64,000 nucleotides of DNA from Candidatus Nealsonbacteria bacterium (lineage in GTDB: Bacteria; Patescibacteriota; Minisyncoccia; Minisyncoccales; JAUWAW01). The position numbers and the translations under genes were made by a program. The notes under the pieces are model-generated. The model made no database searches and was not told where the DNA came from. It worked only from the letters and a program-made list of their open reading frames with translations. Location of the stretch: positions 7,410-71,409 of the forward strand of contig JAUWAW010000002.1 of NCBI GenBank assembly GCA_030601865.1, written 5' to 3'. Positions 2,187 to 23,224 of this stretch are shown piece by piece. Position 1 is the stretch's first letter. Every line of letters starts with the position of its first letter.

Positions 2187-3489
2187 TTAGTTCGCCTAAA
2201 ACTACTTCAAGGGTTTTTTCCTCTCCTTCGCGCAGGATTTTTAAGGCGACTGTGTCTCCGGGATTGTATTTTTGGATAATTTTTGCCAAAGAATTCTCCA
2301 GGGTAATTTTCTGGCCACCAAATTCTAAAATAATATCATCTCTTTTGAGACCGACTTTCTCAGCCGGTGTCTCAGGAACCACTGCTCTCTCATACTCGCG
2401 GCAATACTTATCTCGACCAATCCAAGCTCCGTAATTTACCAAAAGATTATATTCTTTTTGATATTTTTCATTAATTACACAATAATAAACTCCTAAGTAA
2501 GGAACAACGATTTTACCAAGAGTCTTTATCTGTTCAATATCCTTCTTGGCATAATTTATGGGGATGGCAAAACCAATATTTTGGGCATTTTCTGCCTTGG
2601 CCACATTGATGCCAATGACCTCTCCCTTCAAATTCAAAAGAGGTCCTCCAGAATTACCCAGGTTAATAGCTGCATCGGTCTGGATAACATCTTCCAATGT
2701 TTCGGTCAGGCCTCCACCAGAGGCAGTAATTGTTCGCCCCAAACCAGAGATAACGCCCACGGAAACAGTATTACGGAACTCGCCCAGGGCATTGCCAATG
2801 GCAATAACTGTTTGGCCAATTTTTAACTTATCTGAATTGCCCACTCTTACCACGGGAAATGGTTTTGAGACAAGCTTACCTTGTTCATCAATAAGCTGTT
2901 CTTTTTCAATTTCAATGACAGCAAAATCTTGAAAAGGATCTTTATCCAAAACCTTGGCCGGGAATTTCTGACCCTCATTGGTCAAAACAGTATATTCTAC
3001 CTCTTCATTTAAAACAACATGCTTGTTGGTCAAAATCAGTCCATCCTCAGAAACAATAAAGCCGGTTCCTCCACCAACTTGCTTTTTCTCAACGCCTTTT
3101 TGGCGATACTGGGGAATTTTGAATCCAAATGGTTCAATATAGTATTCTTCAACAATGGGCAGGTCTTTGGTAATAATAATGCTGACCACCGCTGGAGAAA
3201 CGCCCTCTACTGCTTTAATAATGGCCTCTTCTTGGGAGGCCTGCCCCGCCGCCCCACCCAGCACTTTTGCAGAAAGTGCTGGGTGAAGGGGGGTCTGAAT
3301 TTGTTGAAGCTCCTGATTAAGCTCTAAATAAAAATAGGTGCCCGCAATCCCTCCAGCCAAAAAGCCGAAAACAGAAGAAGCAAAGAAAACCAAAACCGTA
3401 ATAATAAAAAATCGCCTCACCCCTTGCAATTTCTTCTTCGGGATTCTTATCTTCGGCAACTCAATCTTTGGTAACTCATAAAGCGACAT
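2179..3489 (-). CDS. HtrA/DegP-type trypsin-like serine protease with PDZ domain, membrane anchored
   Basis: GTGFIVSEDGLILTNKHVV (His), QDFAVIEI (Asp), GNSGGPLLN (Ser), a C-terminal PDZ-like region and an N-terminal TM helix. Confidence 0.85.
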   Translation of the reverse strand: MSLYELPKIELPKIRIPKKKLQGVRRFFIITVLVFFASSVFGFLAGGIAGTYFYLELNQELQQIQTPLHPALSAKVLGGAAGQASQEEAIIKAVEGVSPAVVSIIITKDLPIVEEYYIEPFGFKIPQYRQKGVEKKQVGGGTGFIVSEDGLILTNKHVVLNEEVEYTVLTNEGQKFPAKVLDKDPFQDFAVIEIEKEQLIDEQGKLVSKPFPVVRVGNSDKLKIGQTVIAIGNALGEFRNTVSVGVISGLGRTITASGGGLTETLEDVIQTDAAINLGNSGGPLLNLKGEVIGINVAKAENAQNIGFAIPINYAKKDIEQIKTLGKIVVPYLGVYYCVINEKYQKEYNLLVNYGAWIGRDKYCREYERAVVPETPAEKVGLKRDDIILEFGGQKITLENSLAKIIQKYNPGDTVALKILREGEEKTLEVVLGELNE

Positions 3490-16065: not shown

Positions 16066-16153
16066 GCAACCTACTCAGAACCAAATGTTTTTGTGTGGAA
16101 CTTATTGAATAAAGTTAGAACTTACTTTGAGCAAAATCCCGGCATTGATATTT

Positions 16154-16284
16154 AGCGGCGCTTCGCGCCGCTATCACCGCCGCCTTCGGCGGCAACACCA
16201 GGGACGTTGACGTTGACAGCGCCACGCGCCTACTGACGCCTTGACCGCGGCGTCGTTCCCAGCGGCGGCTTCGCCGCCGCTGGG
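16154..16284. repeat. Cluster of four GC-rich hairpins (REP/BIME-like array or structured RNA)
   Basis: AGCGGCGcttcgCGCCGCT (16154-72), GCCGCCttcGGCGGC (16179-93), GACGCCttgaccgcGGCGTC (16235-54), CCCAGCGGCGGCttcGCCGCCGCTGGG (16258-84). The GC-rich block stands out against AT-rich flanks. Confidence 0.55.
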
Positions 16285-16343
16285 CTGCAAAACAGGAAAA
16301 TTTTCTCTACATTTCTAAAAATTTTAGGCGGCGGGCTTTTAGT

Positions 16344-16375
16344 AAAAATAGAGCATCATTTGACGCTCTATTTTT
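16344..16375. terminator. Bidirectional terminator hairpin next to tRNA-Ala
   Basis: AAAAATAGAGC-atcatttgac-GCTCTATTTTT. Confidence 0.6.
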
Positions 16376-16380
16376 ATCTG

Positions 16381-16453
16381 TGGACCCAGAGGGATTCGAA
16401 CCCTCGACCTCGAACGTGCCACGTTCGCGCGCTACCAACTGCGCCATGGGCCC
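16381..16453 (-). tRNA. tRNA-Ala (anticodon GGC)
   Basis: Manual cloverleaf: acceptor GGGCCCA/TGGGTCC with G3:U70, D arm GCGC-AGTTGGTA-GCGC, anticodon arm CGAAC-GTGGCAC-GTTCG, T arm GAGGG-TTCGAAT-CCCTC. No encoded CCA. Confidence 0.85.
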
Positions 16454-16467
16454 CTCACCCAGAAAGC

Positions 16468-16728
16468 TTAAGCTGATGCTAAACTGTTTTTGATTCTTTT
16501 TTTCAACTGAGTATATGCCTGAGCAAATCTTTTTAGATTATCCTCTCTATATCTAGTATCAGCTTTAGCTCTGTATGCCTCGTAATAAATAAGGTCAAAA
16601 GGAGCTTTGTTTTTAGTTGACTTACTTTTTCCAGTATTATGTTCTTCAAGCCTTCTTATTAAATCATTTGTATAGCCAATATAAACACTGTTATCTCTTT
16701 TACTTCGTATCAAGTAGATATAATACAT
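16468..16728 (-). CDS. GIY-YIG nuclease domain protein (stand-alone, 86 aa)
   Basis: MYYIYLIRSKRDNSVYIGYTNDLIRRLEEHN is the GIY-YIG motif set. The ORF is exactly bracketed by inverted CCCAGAAAGCTT / AAGCTTTCTGGG. Confidence 0.8.
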   Translation of the reverse strand: MYYIYLIRSKRDNSVYIGYTNDLIRRLEEHNTGKSKSTKNKAPFDLIYYEAYRAKADTRYREDNLKRFAQAYTQLKKRIKNSLASA

Positions 16729-16760
16729 AAAGCTTTCTGGGTAAGGGGCTATGGGGCCCC

Positions 16761-17102
16761 TTACTTTTTAACAAACACTCTATACCAATCTTTGTCAGTA
16801 AAAATATCGTGGAAGATAATACCGAATATGCCGCCGATACAAAACTTGGGGAAAACATGAAGCAATCCTAATGCCCAGATTAAAATGAAAAACAAGGTTG
16901 CCATAATCCAGTGATGTAAATGGAGCTTCCGTTTTCCCAAATTCAAAAACACATATTTCATTCTGCTGTTCTCGGGAACTTTTTTGTGATAATAATGCGT
17001 TCCCAAAAATCCAGCTCCTAAACCTAAAACAAACAAAAAGGAGATGAAAGCAGAAACCAAAAGGGTTATTCCTGGTAAAATAATCTTCTTTGCTTTTGGC
17101 AT
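16761..17102 (-). CDS. Hypothetical membrane protein (3 TM)
   Basis: ORF with hydrophobic segments. No motif recognised. Confidence 0.5.
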   Translation of the reverse strand: MPKAKKIILPGITLLVSAFISFLFVLGLGAGFLGTHYYHKKVPENSRMKYVFLNLGKRKLHLHHWIMATLFFILIWALGLLHVFPKFCIGGIFGIIFHDIFTDKDWYRVFVKK

Positions 17103-17120
17103 AATTTTTAATTTTTTCTG

Positions 17121-17192
17121 TGCCCCTGATAGGAGTCGGACCTATATCTGTTCTTTAGGAGAGAACTGTTCTATCCGTTGAACTACAGGGGC
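17121..17192 (-). tRNA. tRNA-Arg (anticodon CCU), unusual T-loop
   Basis: Acceptor GCCCCTG/CAGGGGC, D arm GTTC-AACGGATA-GAAC, anticodon arm GTTCT-CTCCTAA-AGAAC, T arm ATAGG-TCCGACT-CCTAT (C at position 55). Confidence 0.75.
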
Positions 17193-18531: not shown

Positions 18532-20841
18532 ATGGTATACAATCCTCAAAAAATTGAGCGGAAATGGCAGAGGGTTTGGGAAGAAGCCGGGATTTTTAAA
18601 ACCTCTGACAAGATTAAGGGCAAGAAGAATTTTTATCATCTGGTAATGTTTCCCTATCCTTCAGGGGATTTACACATTGGCCATTGGTATAATTTCGCTC
18701 CGGCTGATGTTTATGCCCGCTTCAAAAGAATGCAGGGTTTTAATGTAATGAGCCCGATTGGCTTTGATGCCTTTGGTTTACCTGCTGAAAACGCAGCTAT
18801 TAAACACGGTATCCATCCCAAAACCTGGACTTATAAAAATATTGAGAGGATGAGAAAACAATTAAAATCAATGGGTACGATTTATGATTGGCAAAGAGAA
18901 ATTATTACCTGTGACCCAGATTATTATAAATGGACCCAGTGGTTGTTTCTCCAATTTTACAAAGCCGGCTTGGCCTACCGCGCAAAAGTGCCAGCCAATT
19001 GGTGCCCCTCCTGTAAAACAATTTTAGCCAACGAACAAGTCATTGAGGGCAAATGTGAAAGGTGCGACTCAGATGTTTTGCAAAAAGAAATTGAACAATG
19101 GCTTTTTAAGATTACTGATTATGCTGAAAAGTTGCTCAAAGACCTGGATAAATTGGACTGGCCCGAGAGAACAAAAACGATGCAAAAGAATTGGATCGGG
19201 AAGTCCGAGGGCTATGAAATTAAATTTTCATCAATCCCTGTCTTCACTACGCGGCTTGACACCATATTTGGATGTACCTACTTGGTTTTGGCACCAGAAA
19301 ATCCAATCATTGAAAAATTAAAAAACAAAATTACCAATTACCAAGAAGTTAAAAGATACATTGAGAAGTCAAAGAAAAAAACAGAAAGAGAGCGCCTCAG
19401 CGAAGCAAAAGAGAAAACCGGGGTTGAAATCAAAGGAGTAAAAGCAATAAATCCAGCTAACGGAGAAAAGATTCCCATCTGGATGGCTGACTATGTTCTG
19501 ATAGGCTATGGCACTGGCGCTATTATGGCAGTACCTGACCGCGATGAACGCGACATGGAATTTGCCAAAAAATACAATCTGCCAATTAAAAAAACAAGGT
19601 TAGTTGATAGTAAAAAAATTGCTAAGAAAGTTAAAGGCAAAAAGATAACTAATTACAAGCTTCGCGATTGGGTAATTTCTCGCCAGAGATACTGGGGAGT
19701 GCCTATTCCAATGGTAAAATGCCAGAAATGCGGCTGGGTACCTGTTCGGGAGAAAGATTTACCAGTATTGCTGCCGACCCTAAAAGATTTCCGGCCAACT
19801 GGTAAGGGCAAATCCCCCTTGGCCAAATCAAAAAAATTCGTTCAAACAAAGTGTCCAAAATGTAAAGAATTAGCAGAAAGGGAAACCGACACTATGGATA
19901 CTTTTGTCTGCTCCTCCTGGTATTATTTAAGATACACTGACCCTAAGAATAAAAAGAAATTTGCTGACCCCAAAAAATTAAAGGCCTGGTTGCCGGTTGA
20001 TATGTATATAGGGGGCGCCGAGCATACAGTGATGCATCTTTTATACGCCCGATTTTTTACCAAGGCCTTGCAAAAACTTGGCATTTTAGATTTTTCAGAG
20101 CCGTTTTTACGGTTGCGCCACCAAGGAATTATCTTGGGTCCCGACGGTCAAAAAATGTCAAAATCCAGAGGAAATGTTATAGACCCGGATATTCAAGTTA
20201 AAAAATATGGTGCTGATGCGGTCAGAATGTATCTCTGTTTTATGGGACCCTATGACCAAGGGGGTCCTTGGCAGCCAAGAGGGATTGTGGGCATAGCAAG
20301 GTTCTTAGACAAAATTTTCAATTTTCAATTTTCAATTTTCAATGACCAAAATTCTAAACTTAAAAAGCTATTACATAGAACAATTAAGAAAGTCACGGAG
20401 GATATTGAAAACTTTCGGTTTAATACGGCGATTTCAGCTTTAATGATTTTGGTCAATGAGATGCAGAAACAAAAAGGTCTAGAACCCGAGGTTAGACCTA
20501 CATTATTAAAATTACTGGCGCCCTTTGCCCCGCACTTTGCCGAAGAACTCTGGTCCTCCTTCGCTAAAGCTTCGGAGGATAAACATTTTGATATTAAAAA
20601 TTCAGTTCACAATCAGAAATGGCCCAAGTATAATCCAAAACTAATTAAAGAAGAAATGATAACTTTGATTATCCAGGTCAATGGCAAGGTACGAGCCAAA
20701 ACAGAAACAGAAGCAGGTATTTCAAAAGAAAAAGCTAAAGAACTTGCTTTATCTTGTGAAAAAGTGCGAAAATGGACAGAGGGCAAGAAAATAAAGAAAA
20801 TAATCTTTGTGCCAGATAAATTAATCAATATTGTAATATGA
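18532..20841 (+). CDS. leuS: Leucyl-tRNA synthetase
   Basis: HIGH motif (PSGDLHIGHWYN), KMSKS (QKMSKSRGN), CP1 and Zn-finger CxxC pairs. Carries in-frame repeat inserts at 20314-20341 and about 20553-20580. Confidence 0.92.
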   Translation: MVYNPQKIERKWQRVWEEAGIFKTSDKIKGKKNFYHLVMFPYPSGDLHIGHWYNFAPADVYARFKRMQGFNVMSPIGFDAFGLPAENAAIKHGIHPKTWTYKNIERMRKQLKSMGTIYDWQREIITCDPDYYKWTQWLFLQFYKAGLAYRAKVPANWCPSCKTILANEQVIEGKCERCDSDVLQKEIEQWLFKITDYAEKLLKDLDKLDWPERTKTMQKNWIGKSEGYEIKFSSIPVFTTRLDTIFGCTYLVLAPENPIIEKLKNKITNYQEVKRYIEKSKKKTERERLSEAKEKTGVEIKGVKAINPANGEKIPIWMADYVLIGYGTGAIMAVPDRDERDMEFAKKYNLPIKKTRLVDSKKIAKKVKGKKITNYKLRDWVISRQRYWGVPIPMVKCQKCGWVPVREKDLPVLLPTLKDFRPTGKGKSPLAKSKKFVQTKCPKCKELAERETDTMDTFVCSSWYYLRYTDPKNKKKFADPKKLKAWLPVDMYIGGAEHTVMHLLYARFFTKALQKLGILDFSEPFLRLRHQGIILGPDGQKMSKSRGNVIDPDIQVKKYGADAVRMYLCFMGPYDQGGPWQPRGIVGIARFLDKIFNFQFSIFNDQNSKLKKLLHRTIKKVTEDIENFRFNTAISALMILVNEMQKQKGLEPEVRPTLLKLLAPFAPHFAEELWSSFAKASEDKHFDIKNSVHNQKWPKYNPKLIKEEMITLIIQVNGKVRAKTETEAGISKEKAKELALSCEKVRKWTEGKKIKKIIFVPDKLINIVI
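20314..20341. repeat. Tandem heptamer ATTTTCA x4, in frame in leuS
   Basis: Read as FNFQFSIFN. Same 7-nt periodicity as the ATTCGTR arrays elsewhere. Confidence 0.7.
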
Positions 20842-22526
20842 AGAAAATTCTATTAGGTAATGAGGCGATTGTCAGGGGTGCTCTGGAAGCAGGGGTCAAT
20901 TTTGTTTCTACTTATCCTGGCACACCGGCTTCAGAGATTGGCAATACTTTTTACAAAATCGCCAAAGAAGCTGGGGTTTACCCCCACACCAAACGGGGGC
21001 AAGGCGCCAAAATTGACGAAGTCAGCCCCCGTTCTGGTGTGGGGGTCTATTTTGAATTTTCAACCAATGAAAAAGTGGCTTTGGAAGCTGGGATAGGAGC
21101 CAGTTTTTCCGGTCTTAAAACCTTAGTGGCCATGAAGCATTTTGGCCTTAATGTGGCCTCTGATAGTTTAATGCCTTTTTGTTATACGGGCAGCAAGGGA
21201 CCAACTGTAATTGTCGTAGCTGATGATCCTAACTGCTGGAGTTCAGCTCAATCAGAGCAAAACTCAAGGGCTTATTCTTATTTAGCCCACATTCCTACTT
21301 TAGAACCCTCTGACCCTCAGGAGTGCAAGGATTTCATTAAATTGGCCTTTGAAATTTCTGAAAAATTTAACCTGCCTATCTTAATCAGATTAACTACCCG
21401 CGTCAGCCACCAACGCGCCCCCGTTAAACTCGGCAAACTATCGGGAAGCCATCCCGATAAAGCAAGGTTTGTCAAAGAGCCACAAAGGTTTGTCACTATG
21501 CCGCCCCGAGTTCTGGAAATGAAAAAAGAACTTTTTAAAAAAATAGAAAAAATAAAAGAATTTTCCGAAAAAACCTTTATCAATAAAATAAGTTTGTTGA
21601 CATCGGATGTCAACAAACAAAAGACCGGCATCATCACTTCAGGAGTTTCTTATTTGTATGTAATGGAGGCATTGGAAGAATTAAAAATAGATTTGCCGGT
21701 TTTGAAACTGGGATTCTTTTATCCTCTGTCAGAAAAGAAAATTAAAGATTTTATTAAAAATCTTAAAAAGGTTCTGACAGTTGAAGAATTAGAACCATAT
21801 CTTGAAAAGGAAATAACAGCTTTAGCTAAATCTGTAAATCCTGGACTACAAATCTATGGCAAAGCTCTTTTGCCTGAGGTCGGAGAGTTGAAACCTGACC
21901 ATGTAGTTGCAGCTTTAGCTACTGTGCTTAAAACTCACGATCGTAGAGTTTTAGCACAGCGGGCTGATTTGCCCAAGTTTCCAAAACGTTTGCCAAATCT
22001 ATGTCCTGGTTGCCCTTACTGGCTTGTTTTTGGTGCAGCAAAGAAAGCAGTCGATTTTAAGAAAGTAATCTTTGGCGGTGACATTGGCTGCTATATGTTA
22101 GCTGGCTTGCCACCTCACAATATCCAGGATTATCTTTCTTGCATGGGTTCTTCTATTGGTATAGCTCATGGAATCAAGAAAGCTACCGCCGGGCAACAAA
22201 AACTTATTGCTTTTATTGGCGATTCCACTTTTTTCCATGCGGGCATCCCTGCTTTAATCAACACCGTCTTTAACAAGTCAAACCCCTTAATTATTGTGAT
22301 GGATAACCAAACCATGGCTATGACCGGCCACCAACCTCACCCCGGCGCGCCAGCCAAGCCAGATGGAATAAAAATTGAGAATATTGTCAAAGCCTGCGGC
22401 GTTAAAAATCTAAAAGTGATTGACCCCATCAAACAAAAAGAATTAATAAAAACAATTAAAGAATTTTTAAACAAAAAACAGGTCTCGGTAATTATTGCCC
22501 GAAGACCCTGTATATTTGTAAAATGA
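20838..22526 (+). CDS. iorA: Indolepyruvate:ferredoxin oxidoreductase alpha subunit (TPP-binding)
   Basis: N-terminal GNEAIVRGALEAGVNFVSTYPGTPASEI; CPGCPYW; TPP motif GDSTFFHAG. 4-nt overlap with iorB. Two in-frame palindromic inserts. Confidence 0.8.
   Translation: MKKILLGNEAIVRGALEAGVNFVSTYPGTPASEIGNTFYKIAKEAGVYPHTKRGQGAKIDEVSPRSGVGVYFEFSTNEKVALEAGIGASFSGLKTLVAMKHFGLNVASDSLMPFCYTGSKGPTVIVVADDPNCWSSAQSEQNSRAYSYLAHIPTLEPSDPQECKDFIKLAFEISEKFNLPILIRLTTRVSHQRAPVKLGKLSGSHPDKARFVKEPQRFVTMPPRVLEMKKELFKKIEKIKEFSEKTFINKISLLTSDVNKQKTGIITSGVSYLYVMEALEELKIDLPVLKLGFFYPLSEKKIKDFIKNLKKVLTVEELEPYLEKEITALAKSVNPGLQIYGKALLPEVGELKPDHVVAALATVLKTHDRRVLAQRADLPKFPKRLPNLCPGCPYWLVFGAAKKAVDFKKVIFGGDIGCYMLAGLPPHNIQDYLSCMGSSIGIAHGIKKATAGQQKLIAFIGDSTFFHAGIPALINTVFNKSNPLIIVMDNQTMAMTGHQPHPGAPAKPDGIKIENIVKACGVKNLKVIDPIKQKELIKTIKEFLNKKQVSVIIARRPCIFVK
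20981..21045. repeat. CCCCCACACC stem-loop element, copy D1, in frame in iorA
   Basis: 20-bp stem CCCCCACACCAAACGGGGGC / GCCCCCGTTCTGGTGTGGGGG (one bulge) with a 24-nt loop. Translated as PHTKRGQGAKIDEVSPRSGVG. Confidence 0.8.
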
Positions 22527-23224
22527 TGAATAAAACATTCAATATGGTAATTGTGGGCACCGGGGGGCAAGGAGTGATTACGGTTTTGCGGATTTTGGCT
22601 GAAGTAGCCCTTATTGAGGGCTATGATGTCAAAACTTCAGAACTCCACGGCCTCAGCCAAAGAGGGGGCTCGGTTGAGGTTCATATTAAATTTGGCAACA
22701 AAATACACTCTCCCCTGGTAGCTCAAGGCAAAGCCGACTTAATCTTGGGCTTAGAAATGCAGGAATGCTTGAAATCTTGCTATTTTGTTCACCCCCACAC
22801 CAAACGAGAACAAGATGCCAAGGGCACCAAAATTGACAAGGTCAGTTCTCGTTATGGTGTGGGGGCAAACTCAAAAACAAGTTTTTTAATCAATGATTAT
22901 CTTATCCCCATACTTTCCTGCCCGCCAGAGCCTTCGGCTCAAGCCGATGGCAGGCGGGTTCAAAAACCCTGGCCAAAAAACAAAATTCTAAAGACCTTGA
23001 AAAATTGGACAAAAGATATTACTCTAACTCCAGCAGCAAAAATCTGTGAAAAAGAATTGGGCACAAAGGTAGTTGTTGGAGTCTATCTATTAAGCTTGGC
23101 TGCTTTCAAAAAACTGGTACCAATTAAACCTGCCTCAATTCTTAAAGCAATGAAAAAAGTCTTGCCCTCAAAATATCTTGAATTAAACAAAAAAACCTTT
23201 AATTTAGCGAGAAAAAATGATTAA
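22523..23224 (+). CDS. iorB: Indolepyruvate oxidoreductase beta subunit
   Basis: VGTGGQGVITVLRILAEVALIEGYDVKTSELHGLSQRGGSV is the IorB/gamma-domain pattern. Two in-frame repeat inserts. Confidence 0.75.
   Translation: MMNKTFNMVIVGTGGQGVITVLRILAEVALIEGYDVKTSELHGLSQRGGSVEVHIKFGNKIHSPLVAQGKADLILGLEMQECLKSCYFVHPHTKREQDAKGTKIDKVSSRYGVGANSKTSFLINDYLIPILSCPPEPSAQADGRRVQKPWPKNKILKTLKNWTKDITLTPAAKICEKELGTKVVVGVYLLSLAAFKKLVPIKPASILKAMKKVLPSKYLELNKKTFNLARKND
22792..22865. repeat. CCCCCACACC stem-loop element, copy D2, in frame in iorB
   Basis: Stem CCCCCACACCAAACGAGAAC / GTTCTCGTTATGGTGTGGGGG with a 33-nt loop. Translated as PHTKREQDAKGTKIDKVSSRYGVG. Confidence 0.8.
22917..22958. repeat. GC-rich hairpin element, copy E3, in frame in iorB
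   Basis: CCTGCCCGCC ... GGCAGGCGGG with inner GAGCCttcGGCTC. Translated as CPPEPSAQADGRRV. Confidence 0.55.

Follow-up and report, generated by a model that had tools for sequence, protein, structure and literature searches.

A UPF0213/Slx1-type GIY-YIG gene enclosed in a palindromic, probably mobile element at the 5' end of a tRNA-Ala gene in Candidatus Nealsonbacteria

The 64,000-nucleotide stretch of DNA analysed here (the window), which belongs to an ultra-small bacterium of the CPR, contains, at positions 16454-16747, what is probably a palindromic mobile element: a hairpin whose loop holds the element's own gene for a predicted UPF0213/Slx1-type nuclease. The gene had been proposed in an earlier note on this DNA to be a mobile or once-mobile nuclease cassette, and this proposal is now supported by an empty site, by copies at different tRNAs and by a recurring duplication of the tRNA 5' end. 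The element adjoins the 5' end of tRNA-Ala(GGC), and only one copy of a GIY-YIG element is present in the window. The features of the locus, with (-) for the reverse strand, are as follows.

16343-16376: 16-bp hairpin directly downstream of tRNA-Ala, kept in the related locus L082
16380-16453 (-): tRNA-Ala(GGC), intact (ARAGORN; Rfam tRNA 64.9 bits), with nt 1 at 16453
16450-16469 (strandless): right (3') arm of the 20-bp inverted repeat
16454-16747 (-): element proper, 294 bp, delimited by comparing the window with the L082 empty site, where this DNA is missing except for the duplicated tRNA bases
16468-16728 (-): ORF of 86 aa for a predicted GIY-YIG nuclease of the UPF0213/Slx1-like branch (Pfam, profile search, structure model)
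16730-16749 (strandless): left (5') arm of the 20-bp inverted repeat
16741-16764: short local hairpin of 9 bp (16741-16749 with 16756-16764), in which the former tRNA copy pairs with the outer end of the left arm
16748-16760 (-): apparent decayed copy of tRNA nt 1-11, GGGGCCCCATAGC versus GGGCCCATGGC in the tRNA
16761-17102 (-): upstream ORF for a 113-aa membrane protein (orthologue P0123, 61% identity)
17120-17192 (-): tRNA-Arg(CCT), which holds the equivalent position in L082
17298-17270 (-): promoter-like site ahead of tRNA-Arg(CCT)

In its own orientation, the element has the ends CCCTTACCC...ORF...GGGTGAG. Terminal repeats of 12 bp had been described previously, and CCCAGAAAGCTT (16458-16469) and AAGCTTTCTGGG (16730-16741) are indeed exact reverse complements; the length, on the other hand, had to be corrected. 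The repeat survives alignment and its similarity grows from 12 to 20 nt, of which 19 are complementary (16450-16469 versus 16730-16749). The repeats had also been said to bound the 86-aa ORF exactly, which holds for the longer arms, as these lie within 1 nt of the start codon and inside the stop codon: the left arm stops 1 nt short of the ATG, and the right arm starts from 1 nt into the stop codon. The right arm is composed of tRNA nt 1-4, a 14-nt spacer and 2 nt of the stop codon. The left arm deviates from the family consensus CCCTCAC by a single C-to-T change, which gives a U·G pair in the sense RNA. Taken alone, the 12-mer pair lacks significance in a sequence of 64 kb, as two or more matches at one mismatch turn up in 25 of 100 shuffles, and the 20-bp repeat is the tenth longest inverted repeat in the window when arms within 500 nt are counted. 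The bracket is significant because relatives share equivalent arms, with a bracket score of at least 10 at 55 of the 72 intact homologous loci versus 0.6% of random positions in those loci. Terminal inverted repeats, a feature of TIR transposons, are thus present both in the window (20 bp, 19/20) and family-wide. The GIY-YIG gene is the only ORF in the element, in which no DDE, HUH, serine, tyrosine or Cas1 transposase was found, and an Rfam search of the window returned nothing at the element beyond the tRNA and no intron family.

An empty site at tRNA-Ala, for which a comparison with relatives had been suggested, was found in L082 (GCA_004196315.1). In this locus, LeuRS, HtrA, tRNA-Arg(CCT), the 113-aa membrane protein and tRNA-Ala(GGC) follow each other in conserved order, the GIY-YIG gene is absent and tRNA-Ala(GGC) starts 2 nt past the upstream stop codon. 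The empty-site sequence is TAGacGGGCCCATGGCGCAG and includes AAGAGGTAGACGGGCCCATGGCGCAGCGG, and the first 15 nt of tRNA-Ala are identical in the window and the empty site. Since the order is kept in L082 without the element, about 307 bp in the window represent an insertion, and the window and L082 provide the occupied and empty alleles of one conserved site.

A direct echo of the tRNA 5' end on the far side of the element, as pointed out in the earlier note, was confirmed (GGGCCCCTCAC at 16448-16458 versus GGGCCCCTTAC at 16754-16764). From its sequence and position, this echo is read as the remnant of the tRNA 5' end at its former position, now decayed; it begins right behind the stop codon of the upstream 113-aa ORF and sits about where the tRNA starts in the L082 empty site. 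The echo had been compared to a target duplication that takes in the first tRNA bases, and this comparison gained weight from the relatives, in which nt 1-11 of the local tRNA recur upstream of the left arm. These copies have 0-1 mismatch in 13 tRNA-flank loci, and the window copy has decayed. Whether the duplication measures 9 or 11 nt is ambiguous, as a run of G overlaps the right junction. At loci away from a tRNA 5' end, flanking repeats are at chance level, mostly 3-8 nt, and in the RNase P-loop copies a flanking duplication was not found. An integrase-type att duplication was rejected, as the repeat copies the tRNA of each locus and no gene for a recombinase is present. An origin of the left arm from foldback synthesis on the upstream flank was also rejected, as the arm is not continued as the complement of the flank.

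A search for other GIY-YIG copies with such terminal repeats yielded copies beside different tRNAs. At 15 independent loci, the ORF lies 13-17 nt upstream of a tRNA and that tRNA's own nt 1-11 are repeated. At least eight tRNA species are hit: Ala-TGC, Ala-GGC, Ile, Met, Val-GAC, Val-CAC, Val-TAC and Arg-GCG. Other copies are located within stable RNAs. The ORF is found in the P12 loop of RNase P RNA in L031 (308 bits), in the P9 loop in L021 and in the P3 loop in L024, where GGTTCAAGGCAAGC in the upstream flank is paired with GCUUGCCUUGGACC at the 3' end; L034, L049, L060 and L071 resemble L024, with the P3-loop position judged by eye. In L050, the ORF lies inside 23S rRNA. Several of the RNase P genes carrying the ORF scored below the Rfam threshold. 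With regard to tRNAs within 100 nt, the ORF is co-oriented in 25 cases and opposed in none, and no RNase P motif antisense to the ORF was found among the family loci. Neither an intron nor an intein was found at the element or at its relatives in RNase P RNA and rRNA. Truncated ORFs occur in 6 of 80 cases, and L008 holds two identical 302-bp units in tandem. All related loci come from metagenome assemblies; an identical locus is present in an independent read-set assembly (L081). Exact matches to protein P0005 on 16 contigs represent one locus in different samples and are not evidence for multiple sites. Phage records yielded only matches of 33-37% identity and IMG/VR one partial match, so that these searches gave no indication of transport by a virus. 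Taken together, the element family is evidently large, and its targets appear to be tRNA, RNase P RNA and rRNA genes, which are left unbroken.

The arms of the family are about 20 bp long, and 1063 of 1104 pairs are Watson-Crick. In a covariation test, 97.4% of the cells were paired versus 38-52% with the partner slid, and double changes were seen in 13 of 16 pairs; the underlying alignment was built from arms found by complementarity, which introduces an ascertainment bias into these values. The arms co-vary across loci yet stay complementary, and therefore the pairing itself appears to be selected. Folding of the window transcript placed the 20-bp stem in both the MFE and the centroid structure (z = -5.3). 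The mismatches in the arms comprise 16 G·U versus 13 A·C on the sense strand, and because this shows no G·U bias, RNA and DNA pairing are inseparable from sequence alone outside RNase P RNA; the selected pairing is most likely that of an RNA stem. In the closest subclass, conservation of the arms exceeds that of saturated synonymous sites. In addition, at 55 of 72 loci the stop and start codons form part of the arms or directly adjoin them, and the arm subtype follows protein similarity, indicating that ORF and arms evolve as a unit. The arms are accordingly regarded as more than the protein-binding ends of a transposon.

The 86-aa protein matches the Pfam GIY-YIG domain PF01541 with an E-value of 5e-16 (59.2 bits versus a cut-off of 22.6), and Y5, Y16, G18, R26, H30, E50, R61 and E62 are invariant among 35 sequences. 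In profile searches, the best matches were 1zg2 (UPF0213 protein BH0048, E 1.9e-12) and 1ywl (4.9e-9), with weaker matches to Slx1 (8e-5 to 1e-2), I-TevI (0.022) and UvrC (0.094). The AlphaFold2 model, with a mean pLDDT of 95, shows the alpha/beta fold of the catalytic domain with three strands and two helices, and Foldseek ranked 1zg2, Slx1, I-TevI (E 0.13) and UvrC in this order. The protein is thus assigned to the UPF0213/Slx1 branch as a predicted nuclease. It had been called a homing-endonuclease relative, which needed correction, as its branch within the GIY-YIG superfamily is not that of the I-TevI-type homing endonucleases. Pfam and the structure model show the catalytic domain filling the 86 aa, with no DNA-binding domain. 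The protein is 55-80% identical across CPR lineages, and dN/dS values of 0.06-0.2 point clearly to purifying selection. About 4,270 UPF0213/COG2827 clusters at 50% identity match the profile at E <= 1e-10.

Hairpins with related arms also exist without the ORF, and two of these lie in frame within protein genes of the window. One such ORF-less in-frame insert has a length of 69 nt, is flanked by a 9-bp direct repeat and is missing from a 73%-identical orthologue. The two ORF-less hairpins in the window have the arm subtype ACCCCCACACC, versus GCCCCTYACCC in the GIY-YIG element. Some hairpins enclose a whole tRNA in place of the ORF. In the L084 group, the gene for a 239-aa IS200/RAYT-like protein with the HUH-like motif NHFHLI lies 180 nt ahead of the GIY-YIG gene on its upstream side, and a homologue with 39% identity is present in L061. 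A RAYT-like gene within 3 kb was seen at only 2 of about 82 distinct loci, and in the 64-kb window such a gene was not found.

The history of the locus can be pictured as follows. Entry of the element into the 5' end of tRNA-Ala(GGC) would have been accompanied by duplication of the first ~11 tRNA bases, which would have regenerated a complete tRNA on the 3' side of the element, with the old copy decaying upstream. The element seems to have no promoter of its own and would be read through from the tRNA-Arg/membrane-protein/tRNA-Ala unit, of which tRNA-Arg(CCT) is the probable first gene and the 16-bp hairpin at 16343-16376 the probable end. In the transcript, the two 20-nt arms would pair and enclose the ORF from start codon to stop codon. 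Relatives may be tolerated in RNase P terminal loops, in 23S rRNA and at tRNA flanks because the stem isolates the insert from the fold of the host RNA. The stem probably also provides a site for double-strand-specific processing or for stabilisation, by which the mRNA is parted from the pre-tRNA. In the weakest step of this scheme, spread would begin with the nuclease cutting G-run/C-run hairpin-like targets, after which host repair would copy the element in. Such cut-and-repair could give both the 9-11-bp direct repeats and the junctions at GGG microhomology. The ORF-less hairpins with similar arms would then be non-autonomous derivatives. Against this scheme count the catalytic domain of 86 aa, in which a DNA-binding module is not evident, and the fact that a hydrolytic GIY-YIG nuclease cannot by itself join DNA, as well as the single copy in the window, the differing arm subtype of the two ORF-less hairpins there and the RAYT-like gene beside the GIY-YIG gene in two locus groups. 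It is conceivable, as a tentative extension, that the 84-86-aa GIY-YIG protein is the mobilising enzyme of an unrecognised class of prokaryotic palindromic elements with TIRs, 9-11-bp duplications and ORF-less, MITE/RPE-like derivatives, whose insertion sites would be protein genes (in frame), loops of RNase P RNA, rRNA and tRNA flanks.

Other explanations of the locus have been considered. With a classical homing endonuclease gene, no transposon-like step would be involved: the nuclease would cut the empty allele of the same site in other cells and double-strand-break repair would copy the gene in, with the arms and repeats as by-products or homology arms. Only seldom would an illegitimate event carry the gene to a new site of similar sequence, for example a tRNA 5' end or a C-run/G-run hairpin. 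This explanation agrees with the presence/absence polymorphism of a single orthologous site and with targets that, like those of known homing endonucleases, are highly conserved genes for stable RNAs, as it does with the missing flanking duplication in the RNase P-loop copies and the left copy GGGGCCCCATAGC in the window, which differs from the local tRNA as co-conversion of a donor tRNA would give. However, in 13 tRNA-flank loci the upstream copy shares the variable bases of the local tRNA, a match that homing from a different tRNA would not yield, and ORF-less copies show a 9-bp duplication within a protein gene. The protein has no I-TevI-type DNA-binding domains and is closer to UPF0213/Slx1, and neither intron nor intein was found at the element or its relatives in stable RNAs, so that homing is considered unlikely. 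It is fairly improbable that the arms are a REP/MITE-like repeat mobilised in trans, for example by a RAYT-type Y1 transposase, with the GIY-YIG gene as a passenger or accessory: ORF and arms evolve as one unit, Y1 transposases leave no target duplication whereas 9-11-bp repeats are seen here, and a RAYT-like gene is near in only 2 of the ~82 loci and absent from the window. Nevertheless, the RAYT-like genes near the GIY-YIG gene in the L084 group and L061, the existence of hairpins without an ORF or around a whole tRNA, and the different arms of the ORF-less hairpins in the window would all suit this explanation.

A third reading regards the gene as an immobile resident of the host, a small repair or processing nuclease in tRNA operons with the stem as an mRNA signal and patchiness due to loss. 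The strong purifying selection (dN/dS 0.06-0.2), the 55-80% identity among CPR lineages, the single copy in the window and the arms that exceed saturated synonymous sites in conservation in the closest subclass are all compatible with residence. It is nonetheless very unlikely, as the syntenic empty site has the tRNA where the decayed copy lies, the direct repeats consist of local target sequence, truncated copies and identical tandem copies occur, and the location varies by genome (eight tRNA species, three RNase P helices and 23S rRNA). That the repeats are due to chance or to an assembly artefact has a negligible probability. The 12-mer pair alone is not significant and the related data all come from metagenome assemblies, but the match extends to 20 bp, an identical locus is present in an independent read-set assembly (L081), and the recurrence of the architecture in dozens of independent assemblies refutes this explanation. 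A mobile hairpin element with its own nuclease gene is therefore preferred.

Several known systems resemble this element in part. In CPR rRNA genes, GIY-YIG ORFs have been described in sparse insertion sequences that are neither group I nor group II introns and that occupy stem-loop tops or bases where conservation is lower (Tsurumaki et al. 2024, J Bacteriol, PMC11270868). These inserts share the bacterial group and the protein superfamily with the elements described here, of which L050 also lies within 23S rRNA. PMC11270868 covers rRNA only, while the present elements also occur at tRNA flanks and in RNase P RNA, and its main text, searched by terms, mentions neither inverted repeats nor tRNA. 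The literature searched yielded no account of the present family, of its insertions in RNase P RNA or of its ORF-less derivatives, nor a paper on mobility or flanking inverted repeats of UPF0213 proteins.

The intervening sequences (IVS) in the 23S rRNA of Salmonella, Leptospira and Campylobacter, some of which contain an ORF, are excised by RNase III without religation. Like these, the present elements replace a helix tip, have an extended stem from inverted ends and a possible ORF in the loop, and would leave the host RNA functional. This co-oriented helix-tip position with an extended stem is seen in the relatives (P12, P9, P3 and 23S rRNA) and only partly in the window, because the copy in the window adjoins the 5' edge of the tRNA from outside. 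By analogy, the stem of about 20 bp would be compatible with RNase III excision. In contrast to the S23p four-helix protein of IVS, the ORF here is a GIY-YIG gene, the hosts include RNase P RNA and the outer tRNA edge, and the tRNA-flank copies have target duplications. The UPF0213/COG2827 proteins (YhbQ, BH0048 and EF2693) and the Slx1 domain are closest in sequence and fold, with about 33% identity, and UPF0213 has the same minimal size with only the catalytic GIY-YIG core. Slx1 acts structure-specifically on branched DNA and stem-loops, a preference that would fit targets of hairpin form; it requires Slx4 and a RING domain. I-TevI/Seg homing genes share the GIY-YIG domain, the presence/absence at conserved stable-RNA targets and a selfish pattern with decayed copies, but the elements described here have no DNA-binding domain and no intron, and show target duplications and a 20-bp bracket. 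REP/REPIN-RAYT systems and MITEs are likewise dispersed short palindromes, with one gene between inverted copies (REPtron-like); the flanked gene here is GIY-YIG and not an HUH Y1 transposase, and REP elements are not known to make target duplications. Rickettsia palindromic elements (RPEs) insert in frame in protein genes, as do the ORF-less copies described here, and transcripts of Correia elements are RNase III substrates. To our knowledge, neither RPEs nor Correia elements have a known cognate enzyme.

If this reading is correct, a selfish gene can inhabit essential structured-RNA genes without splicing, as the element supplies its own closing stem and the host RNA therefore folds around the insert. 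This would widen the intron/IVS repertoire to RNase P RNA and tRNA flanks, and would offer a testable candidate driver for many unclassified insertions in CPR stable-RNA genes. A natural function is also suggested for some members of the large UPF0213/COG2827 family, and a candidate enzyme emerges for short palindromic inserts that lie in frame in proteins; these inserts have, as far as we know, posed an open question since the Rickettsia elements. Should the GIY-YIG protein itself mobilise the element, this would be a nuclease-plus-host-repair 'transposon' that falls outside every known transposase class, and palindromic inserts of the in-frame RPE type would have their first cognate enzyme. 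For annotation, tRNA and RNase P RNA genes with 300-nt inserts are easily overlooked.

Two smaller observations concern the arms. The 15-mer arm CCCTCACCCAGAAAG is too short as a pattern for a metagenome collection: among the matches listed in such a scan, 79 of 80 loci were due to chance and only L148 was a true element. Next to the left arm, the local hairpin at 16741-16764 was rejected as an intrinsic terminator, as it has no T-run and the terminator scan made no call. It is rather a predicted alternative pairing partner for the left arm, and the geometry of this 9-bp hairpin is repeated in L001, L005, L006 and L009.

The 86-aa GIY-YIG ORF on the 5' edge of tRNA-Ala(GGC) is part of a minus-strand array in an AT-rich window (39% GC), the genes of which have homologues chiefly in Patescibacteria/CPR assemblies.

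Features of the tRNA-Ala(GGC) locus, in minus-strand order
17298-17270, minus strand: promoter-like site, the first feature
17120-17192, minus strand: tRNA-Arg(CCT), after the promoter-like site
16761-17102, minus strand: 113-aa membrane-protein ORF, downstream of tRNA-Arg(CCT)
16468-16728, minus strand: 86-aa GIY-YIG ORF, between the membrane-protein ORF and tRNA-Ala(GGC)
16380-16453, minus strand: tRNA-Ala(GGC), downstream of the 86-aa ORF
16343-16376: 16-bp hairpin, the last feature, after tRNA-Ala(GGC)

An empty site, which the earlier note had proposed to look for at related tRNA-Ala loci, is present in the syntenic relative GCA_004196315.1 (L082; handles L001-L148 denote loci in other genomes or metagenome assemblies). 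The gene order of its contig matches the window (LeuRS, HtrA-like protease, tRNA-Arg(CCT), membrane protein), with an orthologue of the 113-aa membrane protein at 61% identity. No GIY-YIG gene is found at the syntenic site and tRNA-Ala(GGC) starts 2 nt past the stop codon (TAG-ac-GGGCCCATGGCGCAG), indicating that about 307 bp were gained in the window. The first 15 nt of the tRNA are the same in both, and the same hairpin follows downstream. The gain comprises the 294-bp element proper (16454-16747) and a duplicate of the tRNA 5' end. This duplicate confirms the "echo" of the tRNA 5' end noticed earlier on the far side: in the element's orientation, GGGGCCCCATAGC directly follows the upstream gene's stop codon and GGGCCCATGGC is tRNA nt 1-11. 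This upstream copy begins directly after the stop codon, close to the tRNA start of the empty site. Two one-base indels and a substitution now separate it from the tRNA 5' end, as would be expected of a copy that has lost its function. Sequence comparison shows that the element in the window is an insertion.

The ORF is enclosed by an inverted repeat. The 12-mers first described as its boundaries are exact reverse complements, but the true repeat extends over 20 nt with 19/20 complementary (16450-16469 vs 16730-16749), and in 64 kb the 12-mer pair by itself lacks significance. The sole mismatch, T opposite G, becomes a U·G pair in the mRNA-sense transcript. On the left, the arm stops 1 nt short of the ATG, and the right arm begins within the stop codon, which lies 14 nt from tRNA nt 1, and runs to tRNA nt 4. 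Other copies with the same kind of terminal repeats were indeed recovered. A family scan over species-representative genomes yielded 80 loci (46-76% identity), nearly all from CPR; the few others come from Omnitrophica, WOR-3, Dehalococcoidia, Planctomycetota and a Nanoarchaeota bin. Truncation affects six of the 80 ORFs. With a score of 10 or more as the threshold for an inverted repeat joining the 60 nt before the ORF to the 45 nt after it, 55 of the 72 loci that have usable flanks and an intact ORF carry the bracket, against 0.6% for random positions of the same loci and 8% for flanks swapped among loci. Extended arms measure 14-26 bp, mostly ~20 bp (Watson-Crick pairs 1063/1104), and at most loci the stop codon lies within the right arm or at most 2 nt from it. 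The outer arm ends have the motif CCC(C)-N-CAC ... GTG-N-(G)GGG in common, and the inner parts vary from locus to locus with complementarity kept. In a pair count, 97.4% of cells were paired vs 63% in shuffles and 38-52% with the partner slid, and 13 of 16 arm pairs showed changes on both sides; as these arms were chosen by complementarity, the unbiased statistic is 55/72 against its controls. The stem is conserved, with co-varying arms. The arm CCCTCACCCAGAAAG is near-constant in L004, L007, L084 and L148, the window's closest subclass, despite saturated synonymous sites, so arm sequence is constrained in addition to pairing. In L008, two 302-bp units stand in tandem, 100% identical and each closed by the 11-nt tRNA repeat, which may be an assembly artefact.

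In 15 independent loci (the window, L001-L010, L023, L055, the L084 group and L148), 13-17 nt separate the ORF from a downstream tRNA in the same orientation, with Ala-TGC, Ala-GGC, Ile-GAT, Met-CAT, Val-GAC, Val-CAC, Val-TAC and Arg-GCG as tRNA species. In all 15, nt 1-11 of the local tRNA recur just upstream of the left arm, for example GGGCGGCTAGC (Ile), GGGTCCGTAGC (Met) and GCGCCCATAGT (Arg), the window copy being decayed. These direct repeats are 11-17 nt long with 0-1 mismatch (the window copy diverged further); at loci not at a tRNA 5' end, direct repeats are at chance level, mostly 3-8 nt. Repeats of local, tRNA-specific bases have the look of a target-site duplication, and such duplication of local target sequence, as read from these loci, goes with insertion. 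An element-borne attachment core was rejected, since it would not yield repeats of this kind. The element ends in ..GTGAG before tRNAs starting GGG and in ..GTGAGGG before a tRNA starting GCG (L010); by this shift, the G-runs of element and tRNA overlap at the right junction, and the actual length of the duplication could be either 9 or 11 nt. All 25 tRNAs at most 100 nt from an ORF are co-oriented with it. A few loci (L057, L076, L078) lie on or near tRNA 3' ends. In L078 (2925-3300), the ORF begins at the final base of tRNA-Glu; past the stop codon, 16 nt from the 3' end of this tRNA recur (AAATCCGGCTGGGAGC). In L057 (2906-3280), the 3' acceptor strand of tRNA-Leu together with CCA (CCCGGGCACCACACCAACTTA) makes up the left arm.

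Other stable RNAs also carry the ORF. In RNase P RNA it is found in the P12 loop (L031; full-length model, 308 bits), the P9 loop (L021; insert of 291 nt) and the P3 loop (L024), where the right arm adjoins GAGGAAAGUCC and the flank upstream of the ORF (GGTTCAAGGCAAGC) pairs with the RNA 3' end (GCUUGCCUUGGACC) to form P1. Judged by eye, L034, L049, L060 and L071 have the same P3-loop placement; an RNase P motif downstream of the GIY-YIG match also occurs in L047 and the truncated copies L017 and L052, and the ORF of L050 lies within 23S rRNA. No antisense RNase P motif was found around the loci. The elements lie within or beside stable-RNA genes and in their orientation, and because the arms themselves form a helix in RNase P RNA, pairing there must be in RNA. 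RNase P RNA helices without ORF retain an element-type stem in L031 (2850-3490), L021 (2898-3550), L049 (3768-3797) and L060 (3437-3488): the P3 of L031 reads CCCACAC-AUAA-GUGUGGG, the hairpins of L049 and L060 have the arm sequence of the ORF-bearing P3 in the same RNA, and in P12 of L021 the right-arm motif is retained, the left side having G·U pairs. This suggests either loss of the ORF with the imported stem left behind, or homogenisation between helices.

The assignment to the GIY-YIG group made in the earlier note is upheld (Pfam GIY-YIG, E 5e-16), but the protein falls in the UPF0213/Slx1 branch and not with the I-TevI-type homing endonucleases. With a profile of 35 homologues, the best matches were the UPF0213 proteins BH0048 (E 1.9e-12) and EF2693, with Slx1 next in rank and I-TevI and UvrC far weaker, and the Foldseek ranking of the AlphaFold2 model (pLDDT 95) agrees. 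Classical homing only is considered rather unlikely. The 86 aa leave no space for a DNA-binding domain. The invariant residues are Y5, Y16, G18, R26, H30, E50, R61 and E62, and the family counts 4,270 clusters at 50% identity (E <= 1e-10). When tRNA-flank copies are compared in pairs, dN/dS is 0.06-0.2 and synonymous sites are close to saturation. The nuclease-type ORF evolves under constraint. A domesticated host gene is nevertheless a very improbable reading; the empty site in L082, the bracketed copies at other loci and the tRNA-specific duplications support the mobile or once-mobile cassette that had been proposed. In this cassette, the nuclease would start the spread and host repair would complete insertion. 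Given the affinity to Slx1, it is an attractive speculation that hairpin- or cruciform-like, C-run/G-run targets are recognised by their structure.

Mobilisation in trans by another enzyme, such as a RAYT-like Y1 transposase, is quite unlikely, although such a gene stands beside the GIY-YIG gene in two locus groups. In L084 (1599-2318; with the L085-L092 group), a 239-aa IS200/RAYT-like Y1 transposase homologue (weak PF01797 match, NHFHLI motif) lies 180 nt upstream of the element, and L061 (90-611, minus strand) encodes a 39%-identical homologue ~2.4 kb from its element, together with several ORF-less hairpins. 

On the ORF strand, the promoter scan gave no promoter-like site between the upstream genes and the 86-aa ORF, and the element is probably expressed by read-through. 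In a 401-nt transcript model, the 20-bp long-range stem is present in the MFE and centroid structures (z = -5.3). As it includes tRNA nt 1-4, the stem competes with the tRNA acceptor stem; in the MFE fold the decayed upstream tRNA copy pairs instead with the tRNA 3' strand, a predicted result of geometry for which no function is claimed. Stems of ~20 bp suit RNase III. The stem may shield host RNA folding and act as a processing or stability site.

The element's form is like that of ORF-bearing 23S IVSs, REP-RAYT units and MITE/Rickettsia palindromic element repeats, but not all defining features of any of these are present. Tsurumaki et al. 2024 (PMC11270868) mention GIY-YIG ORFs in insertion sequences of CPR rRNA that belong neither to the group I nor to the group II introns, and these are the nearest precedent. 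The bracketed architecture, the tRNA-5' target and the RNase P RNA inserts were not found described in the literature searched, which covered few subscription-journal papers, so that a prior description is possible.

ORF-less hairpins with the same arm motifs occur near GIY-YIG genes in L004, L028, L036, L048, L049, L060, L061, L069 and L072, and are ORF-less relatives of the element. Directly after tRNA 3' ends in L028 (~2946-3000), L036 and L072 (~2937-2990), the acceptor 3' strand plus CCA pairs with a downstream TGGTG..., e.g. GGCACCACACCAACTTCTT-gtatgttgg-AAGAAGTTGGTGTGGTGCC, just upstream of GIY-YIG ORFs without a bracket of their own. Arms of this kind enclose whole tRNA genes in L004 (2741-2843; ACCCCCACACCTTTCG-[tRNA]-CAAAGGTGTGGGGGT) and L084 (~2800-2925; CCCCGTTAGAAAT..[tRNA-Ala]..ATTTCTAACGGGG, apparently lying inside a further tRNA-like sequence directly after the GIY-YIG element), indicating that the arms can enclose cargo besides the nuclease gene.

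In the window, a 69-nt palindromic insert (20982-21050; arms 20980-20999 / 21027-21046) lies in frame within a POR/IOR alpha-type gene (ORF 20838-22526, plus strand), its translation being PHTKRGQGAKIDEVSPRSGVGVY. A 60-nt element (CCCCACACCAAACGGGGG...CCCCGTTCTGGTGTG) and a 9-bp direct repeat (GGGGTTTAC / GGGGTCTAT) make up the insert, and exactly its 23 residues are missing from the 73%-identical orthologue in L082 (GGAGTGTAC|TTT). The GIY-YIG arms of L042 have the same sequence as the arms of this insert (ACCCCCACACCAAAC). It has the appearance of a Rickettsia palindromic element inserted in frame, here in a CPR bacterium. Another ORF-less hairpin of this family (CACCCCCACACCAAACGAGAAC ... 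GTTCTCGTTATGGTGTGGGGGC; 22790-22866, within ORF 22523-23224, plus strand) has the core CACCAAAATTGAC.A.GTCAG in common with the first, and its in-frame translation is HPHTKREQDAKGTKIDKVSSRYGVG. A GC-rich island at 16140-16290 (~58% GC in a 39% GC genome) contains four or five near-perfect GC hairpins, e.g. CCCAGCGGCGGC-GAA-GCCGCCGCTGGG, and, on either strand, folds far more stably than shuffled sequence (z = -4.7 and -3.9). It has no Rfam match and is a candidate ncRNA or cluster of palindromic repeats; in L082, too, a comparable GC-rich stretch comes after the terminator.
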